From assembly GCA_946617675.1 (NCBI GenBank), contig CAMOKH010000111.1, positions 7,685-71,684 on the forward strand: a stretch of 64,000 nt of DNA. The letters run 5' to 3'. The stretch is from an uncultured Prevotellaceae bacterium (GTDB lineage: Bacteria > Bacteroidota > Bacteroidia > Bacteroidales > Bacteroidaceae). Under the pieces are notes generated by a model, which did no database searches, was not told the origin of the DNA, and was given only the letters and a program-made list of their open reading frames with translations. Positions 31,827-43,234 of this stretch are shown piece after piece. How positions within the stretch are numbered: position 1 is the stretch's first letter; each line of letters begins with the position of its first letter. The position numbers were made by a program, and so were the translations under genes.

Positions 31827-32321
31827 ATGGAAGCCATACAAAGTTTCACCATCGACCACACCCGTCTGAAGCCGGGCATCTACATATCGCGCGAGGACAA
31901 GGGATTTACGACGTACGACCTGCGCATCACCGAGCCCAACAAGGAGCCTGCCGTGGCGCCAGCCGCCATCCACAGTCTGGAGCACCTGATGGCTACCTGG
32001 TTCCGCAACTCACGCGTCAAGGACGACGTGGTGTATGTAGGGCCTATGGGCTGCCTGACGGGCATGTATATCATCATGCTGGGCCAGTACTCGGTCGAGG
32101 ACATGCGCCAGCTGACCATCGAGTGCCTGGAGTGGATTCTCACGCAGACCGAGGTGCCGGCCACGGAGCCGCAGACCTGCGGCAACTACCTGCTCCACGA
32201 CCTGCCGATGTGCCAGTGGGAGAGCCGCCGCTATCTCGACCGCCTGCAGCACGACTTCCACTCGGAATACACCAAGCTACAGGTCACCCTCAGCGACGGC
32301 CGCCAGTTTGCCGACGCATAA
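31827..32321 (+). CDS. luxS: S-ribosylhomocysteine lyase
   Basis: SFTIDHT, HSLEH, GPMGCLTG, CGNY..H. Confidence 0.95.
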   Translation: MEAIQSFTIDHTRLKPGIYISREDKGFTTYDLRITEPNKEPAVAPAAIHSLEHLMATWFRNSRVKDDVVYVGPMGCLTGMYIIMLGQYSVEDMRQLTIECLEWILTQTEVPATEPQTCGNYLLHDLPMCQWESRRYLDRLQHDFHSEYTKLQVTLSDGRQFADA

Positions 32322-34218
32322 CCACGCGGCCATTCTCGATGTAGAGTCCCTCAGCAGGCGGTGCCGACAGTCGCTGGCCGTTCAGGTTGTAGAGCTGGCC
32401 GGCAGTCGTCGGCTGGTCGCCAGGCGTAGGCTGGCCGATACCGACAGTCCCTCCCTCGACGGGACCATTGCTGCACGTGAGTGCACCGACGAAGAAGATG
32501 GCGCCCGTCGATTGCTCGCTGATGATATAAAGGAACGGGCGCGTAGCGTAGAACTCAGCATATTCCGGCATTCCTATTGCCAGATCACCAATGATGGTCA
32601 CGGCGGCAGCCTCTGTACCCTGCTCGTCGAGCTTGATTCGTGCCACCTGCTTCATCAGTCCGATATAGGTCTCCACGTTGCAGAACTCCGGAAACTCTGC
32701 TCTTAGCGTGAATGCGGTAGGCATACCCAAGGCCGACATCACATCCTTTAAAGACATATCAGTCTTCGTCTCGAAACGCGGCAGCTTCAGGTAAACCATC
32801 GTCGAACGCATATTCCGGCACAGCTGCCCGAACTGTGCGGCTGTCGGCACCTGGGGCACCGTGTTCACTATCTTCGAGCCTGTCAGCTTGGGCAGCAGGA
32901 CGGTCATCGCGTACGCCCCGTTGCCGTATGGCAGCCTGACGGCCTGATAGTCGTCATCTTCAGCGTAGGCGAACTCCTCCATCTGGCGCATCATCGGGAC
33001 TGTGGTCAATTCTTTCGTATAGCCAGCATGGTCGAAGACTTCCTCCTTCGTATTCCTTTCGTCGAACTTGTTCTGCCATGCACCCTTGAAGTAGATGGCG
33101 TTCAGCAGGTAGCTCACGTAGTCAGGGTCGAACGTCTCCTCGTCAAGCACCTTCTCAATCATCTTCTGCGTGTGGTCGCTGGCCCACTGGTTGATGACGT
33201 CCACCGTCTGCCCGTCGTGGAAGTCGCGCCTCTCAGGCTGGGCGTCGTAGTAGGTGTTGGCCTTCTCAACGAACGAGGGCTTCAGCTGGTATGGCTCGTT
33301 CACATAGATGGTGTTGGCTATCGAGACCTTGGTCGTCGGGTCGAGCAAGCCGCTTTCGGTCATCATCTTGCGGCAGAACTGGTTGATGGCCTCGGGCGAA
33401 CCGACGTCGGCACCGCCCAGTACGCTGCAGATTTCCTGCTGCGTCTGTCCGGCGGCCCCGTTGTTGAGCATCCCCAGGGCGTAGGTGATGCTCAGCGGCG
33501 AGAGAATGAAATCCCAGCCACGATTCACCTCGCCCATCAGCCGGAAGGCGAAGTCGTTGTTCTGCTCCACCAGCCGCTGCTCGTCCTGTGTCAGTTCAAT
33601 GTATTTGGGGGCATTGAAATCGGTTGCGCTGAAATAGTAGTCGCCTGACACATACTCAAACGACTCATAGTCGCAGATGCAGTCTGGCTCAGGTTCAAAC
33701 AGCCAGTGTACCAGCCCTTTCCCTTGGAATCCGACACCCTCGACAGCTACAAATCCCAACGTATAGAGGCTGCCGTCGGGACGCACGTTCTGATAGCGGA
33801 AACGGCGAAACAGCTGTCTGTTCACCTGGATGGTCTCCTCAATGGGCGTCGCTTCGGGGAACAGATTGTCGCCGAAATGCAGACTGACGTCAAACAGCAG
33901 GAAGTCCTTCTTGTCGCCCAGATAGTCGTACTGCCACACCCTGCCCTCTTCGTCTTCGCGGAAGGCACCATAGTAGCTGTTGGTGCCATTGCCTTGGCGG
34001 TACATCCTCATATACCGCCACCCGTCGATGACGGTGTCGCCTCTCAGCGTATAGGCCACCGGCCACGTAGAAGTCTCGTGAGGGTTCTCGTAGTCCACGT
34101 CCTCAAAGTGGTGATACGTGTACCACCACGTCTTGCCTTCCTCCAGCATGGGCCGACGGTCGGCGGCACTGACGCTCAGAGCTGTCAGCACCACGGTCAG
34201 TAATGTCATTGTTCTCAT
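32290..34218 (-). CDS. Secreted serpin with extra N-terminal domain and C-terminal secretion tail
   Basis: ILSPLSI, LLNAIYFKGAW, hinge EQGTEAAAVT, RPFLYII; YNLNGQRL..GLYIENGR tail. Confidence 0.93.
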   Translation of the reverse strand: MRTMTLLTVVLTALSVSAADRRPMLEEGKTWWYTYHHFEDVDYENPHETSTWPVAYTLRGDTVIDGWRYMRMYRQGNGTNSYYGAFREDEEGRVWQYDYLGDKKDFLLFDVSLHFGDNLFPEATPIEETIQVNRQLFRRFRYQNVRPDGSLYTLGFVAVEGVGFQGKGLVHWLFEPEPDCICDYESFEYVSGDYYFSATDFNAPKYIELTQDEQRLVEQNNDFAFRLMGEVNRGWDFILSPLSITYALGMLNNGAAGQTQQEICSVLGGADVGSPEAINQFCRKMMTESGLLDPTTKVSIANTIYVNEPYQLKPSFVEKANTYYDAQPERRDFHDGQTVDVINQWASDHTQKMIEKVLDEETFDPDYVSYLLNAIYFKGAWQNKFDERNTKEEVFDHAGYTKELTTVPMMRQMEEFAYAEDDDYQAVRLPYGNGAYAMTVLLPKLTGSKIVNTVPQVPTAAQFGQLCRNMRSTMVYLKLPRFETKTDMSLKDVMSALGMPTAFTLRAEFPEFCNVETYIGLMKQVARIKLDEQGTEAAAVTIIGDLAIGMPEYAEFYATRPFLYIISEQSTGAIFFVGALTCSNGPVEGGTVGIGQPTPGDQPTTAGQLYNLNGQRLSAPPAEGLYIENGRVVMRRQTGGRR

Positions 34219-34228
34219 AGTCAGTCGT

Positions 34229-35752
34229 TTATTTAATCGTTATTCTTATGCCTAATGGTACGGTCACGACGAAGGGGTGCTCCGTCTGCCACGTCTCGAC
34301 GCCGCTGCCGTTGCGGAAGTAGTGCTGCAGACTCGGTTCGACGAAGAAGCCCACGGCGGGCGTCACGTTGTACTCCAGCCCGAGGCCCACGCCCGCTGAC
34401 CACTGCCAACCGGGGCGGAGGCGATCATGACCAGCCTCTACGACTGAACCGTTTATCACATAGCGGCTATCGAGGGTGGAGCGCAGCGGCAGCTGGAGCG
34501 TGACGTTGGCGGCGGCGTTGAGACTGAGCCTCGGCAACAGCTGCTGTCGCCATCCTGCCTGCAGCGGCAGACCAAGATAATGCACGCGCTGCTCCTGCTG
34601 CAACTGGGCAAAGGTATTGCCCGAGGCCAGGCTCGACGACAGCCGCGTGTATTGCAGGCCGAGGCTCACCTGCCAGTGCTTGCCGAGATGGCGGCTGACG
34701 GTCAGCCCGACGGTGAGCGGCAGCCGGTGGTTGGCCACGGAGTCATAGACGGAGGGGTTCATATCCGGGTCGGCGTATGGCAGCCGCGTGTCGTCGCTGC
34801 CGCCCATGCCGCTGTAGGCAAGGGCTACCGTCCACGCTGAGGCGGAGGCGTGTGGCACCGCCACACGACAGCCGACATCCGGGACTGAGGGGCTGACGGT
34901 TGAGGCAGCGGTATCTGGCGCTTCGGTTTCTGCGGCTGCAACGACGGCTGCGATGGCGGCGGTATCTGGCGCTACGGTTTCTGCGACTGCTACGGCAGCG
35001 GTGCTAACGGCAGCAGTGGCGGCTACGACGGCGGTGCTAACGGCATCGGTGGCGGCTACGACGGCGGTTGCAGTATCGCCGGTGCTTACGGTTTCAGCAG
35101 CGGCAATGACAGGTTTCGCGTGTTCGCCTGCGGCATTTATTCCCCTCCCCTCCAGGGGAGGGGCCAGGGGTGGGGTCTTCGTCGTCTTCAACGGCAGCAG
35201 CGCCGCCACGAGCAGCAGCACCATAGGCCGCAGCCACCGCCGCAGCAGCAGCTTGGCACGCGAGAGCTGGGCCGACGACGTGTGGGGCTCAATGCCGAGC
35301 AGGGCGGCAATCTCCTGATGGCTCATGCCGTCGAGCACCGACAGGCGGAACACGCGGCGATAGCTCTGCGGCAGGGCGTCGACCAGGCGCAGAATCTCGT
35401 CGTAACTGACAGCGGCCGGGACGGTGGCGGCTGCCGCCGACAGTGGGCGCTCCAGGTCGTCGAGCGAGACGACGGGCGCCTGGCGCTGCCGATGCTGCCA
35501 GGTGCGCCCCAGATTGTGGACCACCCGCGCCATCCAAGCCTCAGCCTTGGCGGGGTCGTTCACCGTGTCAATCTTACTGAATATCAGCACGAACGCGTCG
35601 TGCAGCAAGTCGTCGGCCGTGGCCTCGTCGGCCACGTAGTGGCGGCACACCCGGCGCAGCCGGTCGTGCATCACGGTGTAGAGCAGTCCGAACGCCTGCT
35701 GGTCGCCCCTCTGGCACCGCTCGACGATTTGCTTGATACTCAGTTCGCCCAT
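34229..35752 (-). CDS. ECF sigma factor fused through a TM helix and Ala/Thr/Val linker to an outer-membrane beta-barrel
   Basis: Sigma2 (DLLHDAF), sigma4 (GMSHQEIAALLGI..SSAQLSRAK), MVLLLVAALLPL, barrel motifs HYLGLPL, WQWSAGVGLGLEY, FVEPSLQHYF. Confidence 0.85.
   Translation of the reverse strand: MGELSIKQIVERCQRGDQQAFGLLYTVMHDRLRRVCRHYVADEATADDLLHDAFVLIFSKIDTVNDPAKAEAWMARVVHNLGRTWQHRQRQAPVVSLDDLERPLSAAAATVPAAVSYDEILRLVDALPQSYRRVFRLSVLDGMSHQEIAALLGIEPHTSSAQLSRAKLLLRRWLRPMVLLLVAALLPLKTTKTPPLAPPLEGRGINAAGEHAKPVIAAAETVSTGDTATAVVAATDAVSTAVVAATAAVSTAAVAVAETVAPDTAAIAAVVAAAETEAPDTAASTVSPSVPDVGCRVAVPHASASAWTVALAYSGMGGSDDTRLPYADPDMNPSVYDSVANHRLPLTVGLTVSRHLGKHWQVSLGLQYTRLSSSLASGNTFAQLQQEQRVHYLGLPLQAGWRQQLLPRLSLNAAANVTLQLPLRSTLDSRYVINGSVVEAGHDRLRPGWQWSAGVGLGLEYNVTPAVGFFVEPSLQHYFRNGSGVETWQTEHPFVVTVPLGIRITIK
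35139..35180. repeat. Single REP-like arm in-frame in the sigma fusion
   Basis: tcccctcccctccaggggaggggccaggggtggggtcttc encodes KTPPLAPPLEGRGI. Confidence 0.85.
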
Positions 35753-35760
35753 CTCAACGA

Positions 35761-37599
35761 TTATCTGACGACGGTCTTCCGTCCACCTATTATATATATA
35801 CCGGGCCTCAGTCCGTCACGACCGGCAGTGCCTACGCGCTGGCCGCTGAGGGTGTAGACGGGCTGCACCCCGACCGCAACGCCACTGCCGGGCGAAGCAA
35901 CGGAGGTCGGCTGTTCCCAAGTTCCGTCATGGCTAAGCTCACTGATGCCCCTGATTAGCAAAAGACCGGGCATGGCGGGCGTTGCATCCTCCGTTCTACT
36001 GACATACTGCATACACGGCATGAACGGCCGCTCCAGGTCGTCAGTAGCCATCTGGACAAAAGTCATGTCGTAGCTACTCCAGCGATAAGTCGACAGCGAC
36101 GGCACCAGCTCGGAGGTGACGCCGACAAAGTCGAAGTCGGTGCCGTGGACCAGCGCCGGTCTTGTGGCCGGCACGGTTGTATCGTCAGCATGGAGCACGA
36201 CCGGAAGCGGCAGCGTCCACATCATATATGGCTCGTAGGCGCACAGATGGCCCGGCGGCACCGGCCGGAAATCGACCACGCCGTTAGCGTCGCCGACGAA
36301 CCGATAGAAGCCCACTTCGGGACGGTAAGGCAGCACGTCGGCACCGGCTCCGTCGTTGACATCAGGATACCAGGCCTGCTTCGCACTAAAGGGAAGTACC
36401 ACGGGCCGGAAGAGGATTTCACGGCCTGAGTCATCGTGAATGACGGCGTTGGCCGGAGCCGCCGGCCTGCAGCTGAACTCAGCCAGACTGGCCTCGAAGG
36501 GCATGGGACAATAATAGGCATGGTCGGCACTGACGGTCAGCTTCTTCGCTTCATAATCGCGCACGATGTTGGCCGAAGCGGGGATGCCCGCAGGCAGGTT
36601 GTCCATGAAGTCGAGGTAGTAAATACAGTTGGGGTTGGCGCCCTTCGTGTCAATCGAGGCAATGACGTTGTTCACCTTGTACAGTCCGCGCAGGTCGACG
36701 GCAACGGCCTCGTAGGGCAGGCTCCGGTACTTACTGTCGCCTCTCATCGGCAGCGGTTTCACCTCCTTTCGTGACGTCCAGTAGGTGGCCAGGCCGCTAC
36801 GCGACTCGAAGTCGTAGATACCCACCTGCGAGATCATGCCGTGGGCGGTGCTCCAGAGCACGCCAAGGTTGTAGCGCTGACCGTATTTCATGTCGACGTC
36901 GAAGCAGAAATCGCGGACGATGGTGTCGTGGGCCGCTATCGTCTCGGCTATCTTGAGCTGTGCCACACGGGTAATCTGCGCGCTGTTGTCGAGGTCGGTC
37001 ACCAGAAGCAGGTCGAAGCCGTTCAGTCCCGCAAAGTTGTAATAGCCCGTGAAAGCCTGGTCGTCGTCATTGATGAGCAGCAGCCGCCCCGACACCCGGT
37101 TGCCGTAGACCACGTTCAGGCTGTCGGCCATCGTCGACATGTTCACCTCGTACTCTGCCCGCAAGGCCGGTTTCCGATACGCCGTCACGTCGATCGTGAC
37201 GGACACGGGCAACAGCTTGTCGCGGGTGATGTCCAGCAGGTCGTCGTCCCACTGGGTCACAAACAGCTGGTAGGTGCCGGGGTGAAAGATGTTGGCCGGA
37301 ATCACCAACTCGCGCGTTTCGCCGGCAGCGACTGCAGCCCATACATTCCCGATGGGCCTAAAAACCTCCTTTCCCTCATGGTCGGCAAGCGTGACGATTT
37401 CAAAGAAGTCGCTGCCGTCGGCCAAGGCCTCGGCCCCGTGGTTCGTCACGAGCAGGTGAACCTCGAAGTCGTAGCAGGCCATTAGCCTGCCCTCCGTCCA
37501 CATGGAGTCTACCGTCACGCCGTCGTTGGCAGCGGCCAGGACTGCCGGCCAGCAAAGGGCCAGCACCGTTAGTCGGCATAAAGTCAAAAGTCTGTTCAT
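35761..37599 (-). CDS. Secreted beta-rich hypothetical protein with C-terminal secretion tail
   Basis: Signal peptide MNRLLTL..; AVAVDLRG/NPNCIYY segment; VYTLSGQRV..GIYIIGGRKTVVR. Confidence 0.75.
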   Translation of the reverse strand: MNRLLTLCRLTVLALCWPAVLAAANDGVTVDSMWTEGRLMACYDFEVHLLVTNHGAEALADGSDFFEIVTLADHEGKEVFRPIGNVWAAVAAGETRELVIPANIFHPGTYQLFVTQWDDDLLDITRDKLLPVSVTIDVTAYRKPALRAEYEVNMSTMADSLNVVYGNRVSGRLLLINDDDQAFTGYYNFAGLNGFDLLLVTDLDNSAQITRVAQLKIAETIAAHDTIVRDFCFDVDMKYGQRYNLGVLWSTAHGMISQVGIYDFESRSGLATYWTSRKEVKPLPMRGDSKYRSLPYEAVAVDLRGLYKVNNVIASIDTKGANPNCIYYLDFMDNLPAGIPASANIVRDYEAKKLTVSADHAYYCPMPFEASLAEFSCRPAAPANAVIHDDSGREILFRPVVLPFSAKQAWYPDVNDGAGADVLPYRPEVGFYRFVGDANGVVDFRPVPPGHLCAYEPYMMWTLPLPVVLHADDTTVPATRPALVHGTDFDFVGVTSELVPSLSTYRWSSYDMTFVQMATDDLERPFMPCMQYVSRTEDATPAMPGLLLIRGISELSHDGTWEQPTSVASPGSGVAVGVQPVYTLSGQRVGTAGRDGLRPGIYIIGGRKTVVR

Positions 37600-37639
37600 T
37601 TCGTTCTGTCTTCTTATTTCGTTAAACACTGTAGTTCAT

Positions 37640-38650
37640 CTATCTTACGATTTTTGTCACTCGCCCGCCCCGGCGGTGGATGTAGAGGCGACGGCCACGG
37701 TCGGGCAAGGTCGTGCAACGTACCCCCGACAGTGAGTAGACGGCCGCGTCGGCTGCTGGCGGCGATGCGCCGCGCTCGCTGATGCCGCTGCCATTTAAAT
37801 CGCCAAAAGCCCATTGGTCGCCTAACTCGGCGGGCAGCGAGACGTAGGCGGGCGTCTCTGGCCGCCGGTCGTGCTGCCGTGCGTAGCTGAAAGCCTCGCT
37901 CATCGTCACCCGCCCGTCGGCGTCGGCATCGGCGGCGACGCCCCGTCCCGACAAGTCTTGCCCGGCAATGGCACACGTCCAGTGGTAGACGAACTCGTCG
38001 TAGGGCAGGTCCTCGCAGGCCCACGACTGCTCGTCGCTGCCACAGGCCGCCGCGATGACCCGTCCTTCGCGCTGCAATGCCGTGAGGAATCCGCCGGCAT
38101 AGCACTGCCCCAGCACCATGCTCATGGATTTCACACGGAAGCGGCTGAGCAGACTGCCCAGACGGGAGGCAAGCAGCCGCTCGTCGTTCCACAGCCAGAC
38201 GAAGGGTTCGGCCCATTGGTTGTCGATGCCACCGTGGTCGATGACGAACACAAACAGGCGGTCCTTAGCCGTCAGACGCTGGGCCATTCCGCTGAGCACG
38301 CGCTCAACGGTCAGCAGCGTGGCGTCGAAATAGACGTCGATATCGCCGTCGCCGTCGAGGTCGGCGGGCGACGAGGCGAAGCCCGTCCCGTCGGCGCGTA
38401 TCATGTCTTCTGCCGGATCGCCGCCGTCGCTCATCAACACGGCGATGTTGCGCTGTGGCACGTGGTAGGTATGGCGCAGCGCGCGGTAGAGCAGCGAACA
38501 GTCGTTCCAGTAGCGTTCCGGATTGGTCAGCCGGTTGCGCCCGCCACTGATGAGCACGGCGTAGAGCTGACCGTCGGCGTCGGCGGTCTGGGCAAGGGCG
38601 GCAAGCGTGTAGAGCCACACGGCTATGATGGCGAGCAATAGTCTGTTCAT
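37640..38650 (-). CDS. C13 (legumain-like, clan CD) cysteine peptidase, secreted
   Basis: YAVLISGG, RYWNDC, catalytic dyad FVIDHGG / LGQCYAGGF, secretion tail. Confidence 0.85.
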   Translation of the reverse strand: MNRLLLAIIAVWLYTLAALAQTADADGQLYAVLISGGRNRLTNPERYWNDCSLLYRALRHTYHVPQRNIAVLMSDGGDPAEDMIRADGTGFASSPADLDGDGDIDVYFDATLLTVERVLSGMAQRLTAKDRLFVFVIDHGGIDNQWAEPFVWLWNDERLLASRLGSLLSRFRVKSMSMVLGQCYAGGFLTALQREGRVIAAACGSDEQSWACEDLPYDEFVYHWTCAIAGQDLSGRGVAADADADGRVTMSEAFSYARQHDRRPETPAYVSLPAELGDQWAFGDLNGSGISERGASPPAADAAVYSLSGVRCTTLPDRGRRLYIHRRGGRVTKIVR

Positions 38651-38802
38651 ATCGTTAACAACTCTGCAAATATAGCATTTTCTTGTCTGTCTTTCACTCT
38701 TATTGACAAGAAAAAGCCGAAAAGACTGCCCCGTATTAACAATGTTTAACCCTAATCAGCCGGCTGGCGTAAGCACTACTACCTAAGGAACGGCGTATTT
38801 TT

Positions 38803-39030
38803 TCCTGCACTTCCTGCACTGAGCCTCATTTCCAGCAGGTTAGGGCAATCTGGGCAATGACGATCCTGCACTGGAAGTTGCACTTTACCTGCACTGGACT
38901 ACGGACGGCACGCCAAGGACGAAAAGCGGCGCTTTACAAGCGTTCCCACGGCCTGGGACAAACGTCCCAGGCCGTGGGAACGCCCGAAAGGCGCCGCCAA
39001 AAGGAATAAGTCAGTGCAGGAAGTGCAGGA
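38803..39030. mobile_element. 228-bp MITE-like element with perfect 20-bp terminal inverted repeats
   Basis: tcctgcacttcctgcactga ... tcagtgcaggaagtgcagga; internal palindrome gcgttcccacggcctgggac-aaac-gtcccaggccgtgggaacgc; T-runs on both flanks. Confidence 0.65.
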
Positions 39031-39039
39031 TTTTTTTCG

Positions 39040-41184
39040 TTATGAACCAGACCGCCGACCCTCCTCTGACGCGCCTCGGCTGTGGCGTAACTTGAGCATC
39101 TGCTTCCCCCACTGCAGGTTGTAGCGGACCGTCAGGCCTACGCGGTGAGGCGCCGGGAGCGAGCGCTGGCGGCTCTCGACGTCGCCCGTCACCACACGCG
39201 TCTCGAAATGGGGCACGTAGAAGTAGTTAAGGGTCAGCGTCAGCCGGCGGTTGAGCAGTTGTTTGGTCAGGCTGCCTGTCAACTGCCAGTGGTCGTCCGT
39301 CTGGAAAGTCAGTTCCTTGGTCGACGTGCGGTACATTCCGTTCACCATGATATTGACCCCAGACTTCAGCATCGACGTTACGGCCAGCGACGCACGGAAG
39401 GAGTTGCTCGTCGAACTGAGCTGCTCATAGTCGCTCGTCTGGTGGGTGTAAGCCATGTTGCCATTGAGCATGAGCCACGACGCGAACTGCTTTGTGGCTC
39501 CCGACGACAGACTGACCGCGTGTACGCTCTCGCCGTTGACGTAAGTCGCGTAATAGAGGTTCGGCGTACTGTCTTCAAGATAGACCTGATGGAACGTGCT
39601 GTTACGCCCCCACGAAAGGCCGACCCAGTAGTTGTGCCAGAGCCTGAGCGTGCCACTGACGTAATCGCTGGAGGCGGGCTGGAGGAAGGGGTTGCCCTTG
39701 GCATACTGGTATTCCGACTGCCACCTGACCGTGGGGTTCAGCATGTGCATGAGGGGCATGATGACGCCATGAGAGTAAGACAGGCTGAGGCGATGGCCCC
39801 GCGCCTGACTGAGGGTCCATCCCAGCTGGACGCTGGGATAGAGGTTGTCGTAACGGCTGCGATGGTTGAGCTCGGGCGTCACGACTGACTGCGGGTCGAT
39901 CACACGGTGCTCATATCGCAGGCCGAGCGAGGCTGAGAGGCGTCGCAGCTGGTACTGCCAACTGGCATAGGCCGCATAGTCTTGCTCACGGTAACGGTAG
40001 ACATCGGCGAAGGTGGCAAAAGGGTTGTCGGCGCCATTCTGGGTAAGTCGGTTTCGGGTGTCGTCGTCGCTGCGCCACGTTGAGACCAGCAGACCGGCCT
40101 TCAGGCTGCCCCACCCTTCAGGCAGGCGCTGCTCGACATCGGCCTGCAGCTCCCTGTGGGTACGGTCGGTGGCTGTTGCCGAAGCCGTGCTCCACAGCCG
40201 GGGCATGCCCTCACGCTGCGCCTCGTCGGTGGTGTTGACGTCGTAGTCAGAGATGGTGCCCGAGACCGTCAGCTGGCCGGTTTTCCACAGATGGGTATAG
40301 TCTATCGTGGCGCGAAGTGAGACTGAGTGGTTATCGTTCGTGCCGATGTTCCGATATTCCGAACCAGGGCTGCCCGGGACAGTGGTTGCCGTCAGCTGTG
40401 CAAGGCTGACCGTGGTCTTGCTGTTGTCGTAGGCCAACTCGGCGGTCAGGAAGTCGTCGTCGCTGAGGTCATAGCCGACGCCGAGCGTGCCGTCGCCACT
40501 GTTAGGCTCGCTTACAGTGGTCTGGCTGCCGACGGTCTGCAGTCCTGTTGCCACGAAGGTATTGCTGCTTTCAGCATCAATCTCGGTGCGCGACCAACGA
40601 TAGCTGCCATTACCATACACCGACCACCGGCCGTAACGCAGCCCGGCGTTGACCGTAGGCAGGACGTAGGTGTGGAAGCCTCGGGCCTGGAAGGTGCTGC
40701 CGCTGACCGTCAGCTGGCCCCCGTCGTCTATCCGCTGTGTCGTAATACGTACGATGGCCTGCCCTGCCTCGGTGGCACTGACGTCGGCTCCGGCCGACGT
40801 GACGACCTTGACCTCCTTGATGTTCCCGGCCTCGAACGACTGCAGGTAGTTGGCCAGGGCTTCGCCGGTGAGCCTGACCCTGCGGCGATTGACGTAGACA
40901 CGCGCCACGGCCTTGTTAAACACGCTTATCTGTGTGCCGTCAACTTCCATGCCCGGCAGGAAGGCTAACGCCTCCATCAGATTCAGGCTCTTGAGCTGAG
41001 GAATAGCCGAAAGATTCACCCGGTAGCCTTCGGCATCGTACTTCAACAGGCTGCCTCGCACGACTACCTCACGGAGTGAGTCGGTCTTTACTATAGGTAT
41101 CGTGTCGGGACGAACACTTGTATTGCCATACCCGTAGGATGGGAACAGCAAGACGACTAACAGGAGAATTGTCACCATACGCAT
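39040..41184 (-). CDS. Outer-membrane beta-barrel protein (TonB-receptor-like)
   Basis: LREVVVRG, plug-like domain, GLRYEH, YAKGNPFLQP, VRYNLQWGK. Confidence 0.8.
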   Translation of the reverse strand: MRMVTILLLVVLLFPSYGYGNTSVRPDTIPIVKTDSLREVVVRGSLLKYDAEGYRVNLSAIPQLKSLNLMEALAFLPGMEVDGTQISVFNKAVARVYVNRRRVRLTGEALANYLQSFEAGNIKEVKVVTSAGADVSATEAGQAIVRITTQRIDDGGQLTVSGSTFQARGFHTYVLPTVNAGLRYGRWSVYGNGSYRWSRTEIDAESSNTFVATGLQTVGSQTTVSEPNSGDGTLGVGYDLSDDDFLTAELAYDNSKTTVSLAQLTATTVPGSPGSEYRNIGTNDNHSVSLRATIDYTHLWKTGQLTVSGTISDYDVNTTDEAQREGMPRLWSTASATATDRTHRELQADVEQRLPEGWGSLKAGLLVSTWRSDDDTRNRLTQNGADNPFATFADVYRYREQDYAAYASWQYQLRRLSASLGLRYEHRVIDPQSVVTPELNHRSRYDNLYPSVQLGWTLSQARGHRLSLSYSHGVIMPLMHMLNPTVRWQSEYQYAKGNPFLQPASSDYVSGTLRLWHNYWVGLSWGRNSTFHQVYLEDSTPNLYYATYVNGESVHAVSLSSGATKQFASWLMLNGNMAYTHQTSDYEQLSSTSNSFRASLAVTSMLKSGVNIMVNGMYRTSTKELTFQTDDHWQLTGSLTKQLLNRRLTLTLNYFYVPHFETRVVTGDVESRQRSLPAPHRVGLTVRYNLQWGKQMLKLRHSRGASEEGRRSGS

Positions 41185-41191
41185 TTATAAA

Positions 41192-41773
41192 TTAAATCCC
41201 GAAAATCCAATGCCACCACCTTCTTCTTTTAACCCGTATTTCCGGAGGCCCCAAAAGGTCTGCGCCAGTATAAGGTATCACATAGATTGCCTCTACTTTG
41301 CGCCCCTTAACTTTTTTAAGGCGCTTCATGGTTTTGGGATTGTCCATCCGCAGACAGCGCCGGTTGATGTAGATTCGCTCCACCGGACGACGAAAGACAC
41401 TATATCTACCGTCTGATGCCTTAACGAGGGGCAGGAACGCAATAACCTTTGACAGGTCATAGTCTCTCAACTGCTGAATACGACGTACGTAAACCGTGTC
41501 GTTAAGACCCATTTCTCCAAAATGCCGCGCTGGTATTACAAAAAACCTTAGCGTATCGCCATCTTGAACAGACCACTCATGGACATGACAAAAAATACGG
41601 TGGTGAAAGCGCACAGGAATTGTATCGCCATCCCTCACGTTACAAACTGCGACATGGTGGACAGTGTCGCGGCAACTGACGTTGACGTGAATAGTATCTG
41701 AAGCCTCATGTGCCGACACACCGACATGAGCCCAGAAGGACAAGGCTGCTGCGGCAAGAAATACTTTTCTCAT
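41192..41773 (-). CDS. Secreted hypothetical protein with a plug-like segment paralogous to the neighbouring barrel gene
   Basis: Signal peptide MRKVFLAAAALSFWAHVGVSA; IAFLP..SVFRRPVERIYINRR..TGAD. Confidence 0.65.
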   Translation of the reverse strand: MRKVFLAAAALSFWAHVGVSAHEASDTIHVNVSCRDTVHHVAVCNVRDGDTIPVRFHHRIFCHVHEWSVQDGDTLRFFVIPARHFGEMGLNDTVYVRRIQQLRDYDLSKVIAFLPLVKASDGRYSVFRRPVERIYINRRCLRMDNPKTMKRLKKVKGRKVEAIYVIPYTGADLLGPPEIRVKRRRWWHWIFGI

Positions 41774-41896
41774 ACTGATAACATTTGGGTTAATACTTAG
41801 TACACCATAAGTCTTATGGGACGGTGCAAAGGTATGGAAAAGATGGGCTACAGGCAAAGAAAACGGTTACACTTTTTACACTTACGGGTAAACACC

Positions 41897-43234
41897 TTAC
41901 ACTTCAGTGCCTAAATGGAAGATTTTCTCGTCGAAATCACGGGCGCCGCCCTCCTCCTTGAACAGGTTGGCGAGCAACCGTCGCTTCTGATTGGTCACCG
42001 CCTGAGGCGACTTACCCAAAAGGACGGAGAGCTCGGAAGGGAGGAAGTGCAACCTGACGAGCATACAGAAGACGAGATTCTGGCTTGAGACAGACACGCC
42101 ATATTGGTGCAGGGCAGAAACGAACTTCGGCATGCTGCCCTCAACGAACAGCTTGAGCCGCTGCAGCTCGCCGTCGGTGGCTTGATGGCCCAACGAGGCA
42201 CTCTTGTGCAAATCGCTCACGATGGGCGATGAGAGCGGTTCGGACGAATCGTCCCATAAAGCGTCGGGCGACAGCTCGGCCAGTCGCAGCCTGACATCGG
42301 CAAGCTGCTGTTCTACTACTGCTTTTTCCTCCACCTGACGGCTCAGACGGTCACATTCTGCCCGCAGCTCGTTATAGCGCGCCAGCTCAAGGGCATAGCG
42401 GGTGTTGACTTCCCTGAGCTGCCTGTGCATTCGCCGGCGATAATAGCCGTAAAGCACGAAGGCACCGACGAAAAGCACGATGCCGACGACGGCAGTGTAG
42501 AGTTGCCGGGTGGCCATCTGCTCCTGCTTCTTCCGCTCGTCCTGCCTATGGCGGAAGAAGTTGGTGATGACGTCGGGCGAGAACACTTTTACGTGCGATC
42601 CGCCCATGAAGTCGGGGTCGGTGATGCCAGGGTGAGCCACGACCCTCATGACGGTTACGCCCGTTGCGGCATTGACAAGGGCCAGCGTGTCAGCCTGCCG
42701 ACGCATCCACGTAAATTCTGCAAGGCTATCCGTTCTCTGGCGATGCTTGGAGGCGACAAGTATCAACTGGCGGCAGTTGTACTGAAACAGCGTGTCGCCA
42801 CAGCGTTCAGCATAGCGTTCGGCCATGCGGAGATCCCTGATGCCGCTCTCTACCACCTGCAGTGAATCCGTATCATCCTGAAACTGGACGTATTGCTTAC
42901 CGATGTAGGCATACAGACGTGACATCATACGCAGATTGGCGGTATCAGCTGTTGAGAGTGCCTCGCGGTAACACAGGAGCGCCATCGACACTTCGCCCAT
43001 GACATCGTAAGCCCGGCCCAGGAGATAATAAGACTGGGTACGCTCGGAGGGGGTTCCGTAGATACTGAAATAATCGACAAGCGACAAGGGGATACTGTCG
43101 CTTGTAAACCATTGGTGGCAGGAGTCATAACGGACGGCCTCAGCCAACAGGCCCTGCATCTGACGATGGACCTGACGGTCGCTACAGGCGAGGAGCCCGG
43201 CCACGAATGCTGCAGCTACGACCAGCCGTCTCAT
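41897..43234 (-). CDS. Membrane-anchored TPR sensor with C-terminal HTH-type DNA-binding region
   Basis: YYLLGRAY TPR, central TM helix, coiled coil, CMLVRLHFLPSELSVLLGKSPQAVTNQKRRL. Confidence 0.75.
   Translation of the reverse strand: MRRLVVAAAFVAGLLACSDRQVHRQMQGLLAEAVRYDSCHQWFTSDSIPLSLVDYFSIYGTPSERTQSYYLLGRAYDVMGEVSMALLCYREALSTADTANLRMMSRLYAYIGKQYVQFQDDTDSLQVVESGIRDLRMAERYAERCGDTLFQYNCRQLILVASKHRQRTDSLAEFTWMRRQADTLALVNAATGVTVMRVVAHPGITDPDFMGGSHVKVFSPDVITNFFRHRQDERKKQEQMATRQLYTAVVGIVLFVGAFVLYGYYRRRMHRQLREVNTRYALELARYNELRAECDRLSRQVEEKAVVEQQLADVRLRLAELSPDALWDDSSEPLSSPIVSDLHKSASLGHQATDGELQRLKLFVEGSMPKFVSALHQYGVSVSSQNLVFCMLVRLHFLPSELSVLLGKSPQAVTNQKRRLLANLFKEEGGARDFDEKIFHLGTEV

Follow-up and report, generated by a model that had tools for sequence, protein, structure and literature searches.

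Trans-Envelope Sigma Regulators in Bacteroidota

Dma3 (BT_2778, WP_011108473.1) of Bacteroides thetaiotaomicron is a member of the Dma regulators with a sigma factor fused at its N terminus, and is found mainly in Bacteroides and Prevotella (Pardue et al., 2024; PMC10927553). Its locus, BT_2778–2779, also encodes a class I S-adenosylmethionine (SAM)-dependent methyltransferase (BT_2779) that is induced together with BT_2778, and in this bacterium, mutants of dma1 and of dma2 show induction of dma3; according to a 2026 paper, knowledge of Dma3 is very limited (PMC10927553; PMC13088901). Here, we describe a four-gene cassette from an uncultured Prevotellaceae bacterium, in which a gene for a sigma-barrel fusion stands with genes for a C13 peptidase, a secreted all-beta protein, and a serpin. 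The window, that is, the whole stretch of DNA that was analyzed, comprises 64,000 nucleotides (nt) of contig CAMOKH010000111.1 (assembly GCA_946617675.1, positions 7,685 to 71,684). On balance, we favor the view that this locus is a Dma3-type trans-envelope extracytoplasmic function (ECF) sigma module of ruminant-gut Prevotella, from a specialized clade in which it would form a self-contained, autoregulated cassette, to which the C13 peptidase would belong as dedicated partner and whose regulon would often include serpins. The sigma-barrel architecture itself is already known, having been published as Dma3, and the initial annotation of this DNA rightly pointed to a sigma-fused Dma member (BT_2778; PMC10927553).

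The resemblance to Dma3 lies in an N-terminal ECF sigma domain, one transmembrane helix, a long linker that is disordered, and an eight-stranded OMP_b-brl_2 barrel at the C terminus, all within one polypeptide. However, the Dma3 locus of B. thetaiotaomicron has no C13 peptidase, no protein of the C10-module or BspA type, and no serpin, and neither a promoter motif nor a partner has been published for Dma3, whereas candidates for both are offered here. Dma1/Das1 and Dma2/Das2 of B. thetaiotaomicron and Reo/EcfO of B. fragilis are also comparable, as an inner-membrane helix, a disordered tether, and an outer-membrane barrel control an ECF sigma factor. The span of Dma1 across both membranes was assessed by fractionation with N- and C-terminal tags. 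Activation through a proteolytic cascade has been proposed for these regulators, as it is here, and their regulons concern outer membrane vesicle (OMV) biogenesis, polysaccharide utilization loci, and oxidative stress. In these systems, a separate sigma factor is bound by an N-terminal anti-sigma segment of about 40 residues, whereas in the window the sigma factor is fused and there is no such segment. Similarly, the FecA–FecR–FecI system and the SusC-like/anti-sigma/ECF systems relay an outer-membrane signal to an ECF sigma factor through regulated proteolysis of a membrane component, and their operons are autoregulated. They consist of three proteins with TonB-dependent transducers, unlike the single polypeptide of the window, which has a small eight-stranded barrel and no TonB box or plug.

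In the literature searched, no paper was found to report the C13-linked clade, the membership of serpins, the promoter motif, what the middle protein is, or the methyltransferase thread. Searches on serpins with sigma factors and Prevotella, and on bacterial C13 peptidases in Bacteroidetes, likewise yielded no paper on this cluster. The cassette provides the first concrete clues to the role of the poorly understood Dma3-type regulators, and through three handles the clade makes an orphan family of regulators testable: a protease partner that is obligatory, a candidate for the cognate promoter that could serve as a reporter, and a small regulon with serpins and a family-wide SAM methyltransferase.

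The Sigma-Barrel Fusion and Its Cassette

The four open reading frames (ORFs) lie on the minus strand and occupy positions 32290–38650 of the window. In order of transcription, they encode the C13 peptidase (P0001, 37640–38650, 336 amino acids), the secreted all-beta protein (P0002), the sigma-barrel fusion (P0003, 34229–35752, 507 amino acids), and the serpin (P0004, 32290–34218, 642 amino acids). The ORF of the second gene spans 35761–37629, but its true start is likely the ATG at 37599, as in its homologues, which gives 612 amino acids. The first intergenic gap thus measures 40 nt with this ATG, or 10 nt with the ORF start at 37629, and the other two measure 8 and 10 nt. The source is a metagenome-assembled genome (MAG) of 2.1 Mb that is 56% complete. 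At this locus, the nearest named relative is a Prevotella MAG from goat abomasum, whose fusion protein is 91% identical. All four gene identities proposed in the initial annotation proved correct when compared with Pfam profiles and AlphaFold2 (AF2) models.

In P0003, the ECF sigma domain with regions 2 and 4 (35228–35752) was recognized by Pfam in residues 5–168 (Sigma70_r2, 1.9e-8; Sigma70_r4_2, 4.9e-14; Sigma70_ECF, 2.3e-8) and above cut-off by the NCBIfam model TIGR02937. In VIA comparisons, the N terminus resembled ECF sigma2 domains (SigW, Z 13.7; SigK, Z 13.6). At the other end, residues 332–471 match OMP_b-brl_2 (PF13568; E 2.1e-7, 31.7 bits against a cut-off of 27) within a C-terminal eight-stranded outer-membrane beta-barrel with long strands (34229–34849). 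By VIA, this barrel is close to the OprF N-domain (Z 17.4, rmsd 2.0, 132 residues aligned), OmpA (Z 16.6), and NspA (Z 15.9), all of them eight-stranded outer-membrane barrels.

The AF2 model, built on 38 homologues, gives the topology of the fusion, with a sigma factor, a transmembrane helix, a disordered linker, and an outer-membrane barrel. Sigma2 is confidently modeled, and the last helix of sigma4 (residues 160–188), which holds the sole hydrophobic segment of the protein, runs unbroken into the membrane segment. The latter is a single hydrophobic helix at residues ~174–188 (35189–35233), and the region is conserved among homologues as LRRWLRPxVLLLxAxxLPL. It is followed by a periplasmic tether rich in Ala, Thr, Val, and Pro (residues ~189–301, 34850–35188), with disorder predicted over residues 186–301 (pLDDT ~30), and then by the barrel, confidently modeled at residues 307–506 (pLDDT ~90). 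Conservation is high in the sigma and barrel parts, with the conserved segments LPYAD (residues 324–328) and WQTEHP (residues 488–493) in the barrel, whereas the tether is unalignable, of low complexity, and variable in length. Neither the model nor the homologue alignment leaves room for an anti-sigma segment between sigma4 and the membrane helix, and none was found there; the ORFs of the cassette include no separate sigma gene. Together, alignment and model show a sigma factor predicted to be kept at the inner membrane through its direct fusion, with the tether crossing the periplasm to the outer-membrane barrel. As a further observation on the tether, the strains represented in RNA-library contigs show in-frame indels relative to the window (3, 12, and 15 nt, and others) at 34978–35188, so that its length is polymorphic.

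Conservation of the Cassette and Probable Kinship with Dma3

In seven metagenomic contexts, with homologues 43–82% identical, the C13 gene, a gene for a protein of ~600 amino acids, and the sigma-barrel gene are all present between unrelated flanks, and four of the seven also carry a serpin. In addition, 80 species-level loci from named genomes were mapped with tblastn and phmmer, and a tree was built of 81 sigma-barrel proteins of Prevotellaceae/Bacteroidales. One branch of this tree (SH-like support 100), referred to as clade A, comprises 39 rows, of which 38 adjoin a C13 gene; the locus of the 39th starts at a contig end. Outside this branch, a C13 neighbor was found in none of the 42 rows. 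The two sigma-barrel clades coexist in some genomes and are therefore paralogues. The source MAG has a second ECF sigma gene (G000:C17:11304-11858, locus L002), which shares 43% identity with the sigma portion of the fusion and ends at the contig edge; it could be the beginning of another sigma-barrel gene, of clade B, that the assembly truncated.

Serpins are present in 22 of the 39 clade-A loci, with one to three units attached. Some follow the sigma gene, some precede the C13 gene, and others lie 1–3 kb away (once on the opposite strand), and they take three forms: an N-terminal domain followed by a serpin, a plain serpin, or a tandem double serpin. The frequency of both partners was also assessed in an even draw of 80 congeners (81 genomes counted). 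Serpins occurred in 50 of the 81 genomes, usually one per genome, and C13 homologues in 9; in all five classic cassettes of this draw, the serpin lay 3.5–4.5 kb beyond the C13 gene. Because the C13 gene is found in 38 and the serpin in 22 of the 39 clade-A loci, the C13 peptidase is, by its distribution, the obligatory partner of the fusion, and the serpin is a frequent accessory, neither universal nor exclusive to the cassette.

Two concerns had been attached to the initial annotation, namely that gene order might not be conserved and that the fusion might be a sequencing artefact. The order is kept in dozens of species with differing flanking genes, from which it follows that the cluster, as read from these genomes, is neither chance nor artefact. 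The fusion itself recurs in more than 80 species-level genomes and in RNA-library contigs.

The methyltransferase family found beside sigma-barrel genes ties the window protein indirectly to the Dma3 family. Relatives 26–37% identical to the window fusion carry a sigma-barrel and SAM methyltransferase pair, as in BT_2778–BT_2779, and in the subclade of S. copri, Leyella, Hallella, and Alloprevotella a BT_2779-type gene directly follows the sigma-barrel gene (loci L074-L075, L081, L083-L084, and L094-L098). The window fusion, by comparison, belongs to the separate C13-linked clade, which is ~30% identical to the methyltransferase-linked one. Within the C13 clade, a methyltransferase gene lies beside four cassettes (L015:4249-5142, L018:4312-5100, L031:5317-6105, and L085:4466-5260), and the cassette motif described below stands ahead of this gene in L018 and L031 (27.2 bits). 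This distribution suggests an older sigma-barrel module to which a protease, a surface protein, and serpins were added in the C13 clade. The matches listed by a homologue search with the sigma-barrel protein of S. copri were taken up by variants from S. copri, with no named Bacteroides protein among them.

A Conserved Promoter-Like Module

Alignment of 26 non-redundant regions upstream of the first cassette gene revealed a bipartite motif, GCAGTCTTT-N~13-T(A/G)TCTTTA, within the fuller consensus TTAAA-n-GTTAA-n~5-GCAGTCTTTT-n~13-T(A/G)TC(T)TTA. In the window, this promoter-like module occupies 38701–38750 on the minus strand and consists of the AT-rich element GTTAAACATTGTTAAT (38750–38735), the −35-like GCAGTC (38729–38724), and the −10-like TGTCAATA (38708–38701), which together predict a start site at ~38694. 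A 31-nt weight matrix was derived from the alignment, with training sites that score 24–41 bits. The site of the cassette itself (38731–38701) scores 35.0 bits and is the sole site above 26 bits on either strand of the 2.1-Mb genome; the second-best match (C97:80652, 25.8 bits) was discarded, as no ORF lies behind it. With a degenerate version of the pattern, the cassette was matched in four of five cassette genomes, with 1–4 matches per genome against 0–1 for a reversed control.

Across 1.5 Mb of related loci, the motif also stands directly before detached serpins (L024, 23.9 bits; L037, 27.2; L047, 27.5; L048, 30.1), before the short form of the middle gene, before the methyltransferase gene, and before a few other ORFs. 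Similarly, in clade B it precedes sigma-barrel genes or small lipoprotein neighbors, as in L076 (33.5 and 34.2 bits). The regulon appears to be narrow and essentially limited to the cassette. Because the motif precedes both the cassette and detached serpin genes, its distribution supports the four-gene cluster as a single regulatory unit. ECF sigma factors commonly drive their own operons, and the layout of the motif is that of a bipartite ECF-type promoter, which would be read by the fused sigma factor.

A second element, TATATTTG (38667–38674, minus strand), was recognized from the sequence ~17 nt before the C13 ATG. It corresponds to TAnnTTTG, the −7 box of the Bacteroidota primary sigma factor, and is conserved in the nearer relatives; from established knowledge of Bacteroides promoters, it is a probable basal promoter. 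In addition, an 8-bp inverted repeat with a 17-nt loop (TTCTTGTC, 38712–38705, and GACAAGAA, 38687–38680) overlaps the −10-like element. This repeat is kept in the closest relatives alone, and ends of RNA-library contigs fall on it. An invertible promoter was considered for loci of the L015 type and rejected, as a forward copy of the motif lies just before the C13 gene and the reverse copies face the divergent methyltransferase gene.

Expression of the cassette receives supporting evidence from four metatranscriptomic runs of two studies, which contain this stretch at 90–99% identity. A contig of 5325 nt spans 32328–37658 and thus covers the serpin, sigma-barrel, and middle genes and the end of the C13 gene. 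Contigs covering the C13 gene end at 38680, 38685, and 38687 (three runs of one study, not independent). These ends lie upstream of the sigma-A box, some 10 nt beyond the ECF-type start that was predicted. The convergent luxS gene is on separate contigs of lower depth.

The C13 Peptidase and a Proposed Release of the Sigma Factor

The first gene of the cassette encodes a cysteine peptidase of the legumain/GPI8 family (clan CD), recognized by Pfam (PF01650, E 4.5e-9, 36.7 bits against a cut-off of 22.8, profile positions 2–194 of 258). Residues N43, R46, H139–G140, and C183 are kept in at least 95% of 42 C13 orthologues, with H139–G140 and C183 invariant or conserved to this level across sets of 26–42, and because of this conservation the protein is probably an active clan-CD peptidase. 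It shares with legumain and GPI8 (MEROPS C13) the Pfam match, the conserved Asn-His-Cys positions, and the His-Gly...Gln-Cys motif. It differs from them in being bacterial and very divergent, in carrying a Sec signal and a secretion tail (37643–37747), and in having two conserved, Asp-rich calcium-type loops of dockerin/EF-hand-like character (residues 97–105, 38335–38362, and residues 241–246, 37915–37932). Unlike in legumain, no prodomain was detected. A sequence search of the PDB with this protein gave a single, dockerin-like match (E 0.077), which was judged to be due to chance. As for other forms of the domain in congeners, G005:C18:2758-3537, G041:C44:2540-3319, G056:C6:9112-9882, and G021:C72:23262-24020 encode C13 domains 42–50% identical within frames of 680–920 amino acids; these are not beside a serpin and represent a second, fused peptidase architecture. 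Dockerin type I-like modules were also seen in Prevotella, at L023:3872-5896 and L023:6676-7962 (Pfam Dockerin_1, 8.8e-8).

As C13 is the invariant partner, the barrel (residues 296–507) and the mature C13 peptidase (residues 22–296) were chosen for a joint fold, each with its own alignment. The score was 0.60 against 0.14 for the best control, the runs agreed in at least 97% of contacts, and the pLDDT of the partner was at least 85. Of 80 solved complexes, 58 attained the mark used in this test, as did 2 of 110 mismatched pairs; with a score of 0.60 or less, it was attained by only 7 of these complexes and by both mismatches. The predicted complex thus lends weak support to direct contact between the peptidase and the barrel, and modestly raises its odds.

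From these elements, the following mechanism can be proposed. The sigma factor would be inactive while it is pinned to the membrane. A change at the barrel or at the cell surface, most likely through the C13 peptidase bound to the barrel, would lead to cutting of the tether, followed by intramembrane cleavage by an M50 site-2 protease. The freed sigma factor would then read GCAGTCTTT-N~13-TRTCTTTA before the cassette and before detached serpin and methyltransferase genes, raising the production of the protease, the surface protein, the sigma factor itself, and the serpin, which could then act as a brake or shield at the surface. Proteolytic release is plausible because there is no anti-sigma domain and because an M50 site-2 protease is present in five of five congeners. 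In the source MAG, M50 was not found, which is no evidence of absence because this genome is 56% complete. If the protease does signal, the cassette would show how a single polypeptide that spans both membranes is switched on. More generally, the cassette has a bearing on protein breakdown by rumen Prevotella, which is relevant to nitrogen use in ruminants.

A stronger form of this proposal makes the C13 peptidase a dedicated gatekeeper: docked on the barrel, it would act as site-1 protease once triggered and cut either the barrel or the tether, with the co-regulated serpin as brake. In this specific form it is unlikely, but if true, a protease-gated, serpin-damped trans-envelope switch would be contained in one cassette, and the serpin brake would make it the first bacterial signaling pathway under serpin control.

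The same absence of an anti-sigma domain between sigma4 and the membrane helix would also fit a sigma factor that is active while tethered, in the manner of ToxR or CadC. The barrel would then govern only the stability or positioning of the sigma factor, and a release step would be absent; the presence of a basal sigma-A-type promoter is in line with this as well. However, sigma4 pinned by a continuous helix is hard to square with binding of both core RNA polymerase and the −35 element. Sigma factors known to be held at a membrane, such as pro-sigma-K, stay inactive until cut. We consider activity in the tethered state highly improbable.

The main rival to C13-linked release is a generic envelope-stress role, as proposed for Dma1 and Dma2, in which the barrel senses perturbation of the outer membrane, and the C13 peptidase, the surface protein, and the serpin are cargo of the regulon without a part in signaling. 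This is the published model for the family (PMC10927553), it agrees with the induction of dma3 in the dma1 and dma2 mutants, and it would account for the interchangeable middle gene (the long form, the short form, or a BspA-type protein with leucine-rich repeats, LRR), an exchange that is typical of outputs. Against it stands the linkage of the C13 gene, which is strict and clade-defining across ~38 species with varied flanks and other members; in ECF systems, linkage of this kind is usual for signaling partners and not for outputs. The joint fold of barrel and peptidase, albeit a weak pass, points the same way. We regard this generic role, with C13 as cargo, as rather unlikely.

Several points weigh against the favored reading of a Dma3-type module with a dedicated C13 partner. 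Deletion of dma3 in B. thetaiotaomicron gives no visible OMV phenotype. Kinship with Dma3 was judged from architecture and gene context. The complex prediction gives no interface, and the location of the peptidase, periplasm or surface, is not uniform, since its tail is truncated in one subclade. The motif could be a site for another regulator, and, with some ways of defining the two elements, its −35/−10 spacing falls somewhat below that of an ECF promoter. The RNA contigs come from a relative of ~90–95% identity and are no proof of one joint transcript or of a start position, nor can DNA carry-over in the RNA libraries be fully excluded. Finally, the cassette is known from sequence and contigs, and cleavage, release, and sigma-dependent transcription are inferred steps.

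The Middle Protein and the Secretion Tails

The second gene (P0002, 35761–37599, minus strand) encodes a secreted all-beta protein, characterized by AF2, VIA, and profile search. The AF2 model (pLDDT 81, pTM 0.73) contains a signal peptide, two Ig/CARDB-like sandwiches, a conserved beta domain of ~280 amino acids (residues 270–548), a disordered spacer, and a four-strand tail (35764–35868). No Pfam family was found for it; by VIA, the first two sandwiches alone resemble FnIII-like/CARDB domains (Z ~10), and a Foldseek search with the whole 612-residue model gave generic tandem Ig-like matches alone (TM 0.11–0.19). A profile search among 1.84 billion representatives was more informative, as the entire protein matches residues ~520–1060 of ~1050-residue proteins that carry Inhibitor_I69 and Peptidase_C10 at their N terminus (pairwise E 1e-17 against an I69+C10 protease). 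Because the full length of P0002 matches the region past the catalytic domain, it is identified from this alignment as a stand-alone copy (paralogue) of the non-catalytic C-terminal module of Peptidase_C10 proteases. It aligns with the C-terminal ~540 residues of this streptopain family, which includes the interpain A and PrtT types, but lacks the propeptide and catalytic domain, and hence is not a protease. Three versions of the middle gene are found within the C13 clade: the long C10 module, a short one of ~350 amino acids that corresponds to its conserved half, and a BspA-type LRR protein.

The initial annotation had described secretion tails on three proteins, and these are indeed present on all three non-sigma products. 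The C13 peptidase, P0002, and the serpin each begin with a Sec signal peptide and close with the motif Y-x-L-x-G-[RQ]...G-x-Y-I-x-x-G-x-K, a tail that in the P0002 model forms four short strands after the disordered spacer. This tail motif is common to 36 ORFs of at least 150 amino acids in the MAG (e.g., C1:548-5245 and C79:26450-31816), where its genome-wide form reads Y-D/N-L-x-G-R/Q...G-x-Y-I-x-x-G-K-K. It resembles the last motifs of the C-terminal domains recognized by the type IX secretion system (T9SS). The profile for such domains (type A), TIGR04183, gave no match at E values up to 10 with the last 73–113 residues of the three cassette proteins; cargo tails of Prevotella may be under-detected by this model. 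SprA (SprA_N) and GldM were not found in the MAG, which for the reason given for M50 is no evidence of absence, and SprA is present in 12 of 12 congeners.

These tails raise the question of whether the module monitors type IX traffic, such that a periplasmic build-up of tail-bearing cargo, including the C13 peptidase, would cut the tether and switch on the sigma factor. The tail is shared by all three partners and by the wider set of 36 ORFs, a T9SS exists in the genus, the tether lies in the periplasm on the path of the cargo, and a C13 peptidase with a truncated tail might stay periplasmic. The regulon found here, however, contains no secretion-machinery genes. B. thetaiotaomicron is not known to have a T9SS, and as it has Dma3, this explanation cannot cover the whole family. 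We hold such a monitoring role to be very unlikely.

In the subclade with the truncated tail (L015, L030, L033, L039, L040, L085, L088, L042, and L035), the C13 protein ends after the first tail motif (…YDLQGRK), without the final strand. The serpin is absent from about 8 of these 9 loci, with one of the nine having it, compared with absence from 9 of 29 others. This association was discounted, as a single subclade counts as one event.

The Serpin

The last gene (32290–34218, minus strand) encodes a serpin whose core (32479–33564) matches PF00079 at residues 219–580 (E 1.6e-89), behind a signal peptide and an N-terminal domain of ~215 amino acids without a Pfam match (33574–34218), and which ends in the tail (32293–32406). 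A protein-atlas search with the N-terminal domain was uninformative (best score 0.76). The hinge and reactive loop lie at 32554–32625, with the inhibitory hinge EQGTEAAAVT at residues 532–541 (P17–P8 pattern ExGTEAAA). The loop is hypervariable, shows no evident P1 residue, and differs even among close relatives, with a frequent T-[GS]-M-P stretch. In the MAG as assembled, this is the sole serpin.

Miropin of Tannerella forsythia and other serpins of Bacteroidota are similar in being secreted or surface inhibitory serpins of T9SS-bearing bacteria with a canonical hinge. Miropin has a lipoprotein anchor, whereas the window serpin has the extra N-terminal domain, a T9SS-like tail, and a placement behind an ECF-type promoter, and its relatives include tandem double-serpin forms. 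The latter are single ORFs of 826–871 amino acids with two complete units, each with its own hinge and a different loop (L026:5858-8446, L044:4331-6853, L047:4153-6768, L048:542-3082, L049:6-2531, L067:2887-5415, L090:10735-13215, and L036:3684-6221); in that of L036, a dockerin-like repeat takes the place of the usual tail.

The initial annotation put forward a circuit that senses extracellular proteolysis and controls a protease/inhibitor pair. The serpin bears directly on a fuller form of it, in which the barrel or tether is a bait for foreign extracellular proteases, their attack frees the sigma factor, and the serpin inhibits the cassette's own C13 peptidase. An inhibitory-type hinge with a hypervariable loop is what would be expected of inhibitors that track diverse proteases, and the detached serpins share the cassette promoter motif. 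Serpins of clan-CD enzymes exist elsewhere, as CrmA with caspases, and Asn occupies the predicted P1 position in the N-terminal unit of the tandem serpins L026 and L067. However, these two units are the sole ones with such an Asn, and the loop of the window serpin has none at or near P1. Moreover, 17 of the 39 clade-A loci have no serpin while the C13 peptidase is always there, and within the genus, serpins are found mostly away from such cassettes; the accessory status of the serpin weakens its pairing with C13. We regard the bait circuit as a whole, with sensing of foreign proteolysis and a serpin matched to C13, as rather doubtful.

The Region Upstream of the Cassette

Upstream of the promoter-like module, genes for a tetratricopeptide repeat protein, a protein of 221 amino acids, and an OMP_b-brl_3 receptor (39040–43234) separate typA from the cassette. 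The receptor was considered as a cassette member and rejected, as it is found in just three clade-A loci. In the nearest relatives (L009 and L011), these three genes are absent and typA stands directly before the cassette; together with a repeat element at 38803–39030, the genes look like an insertion. The RNA-library contigs have loose ends at 38804 and 38844, within this repeat element.

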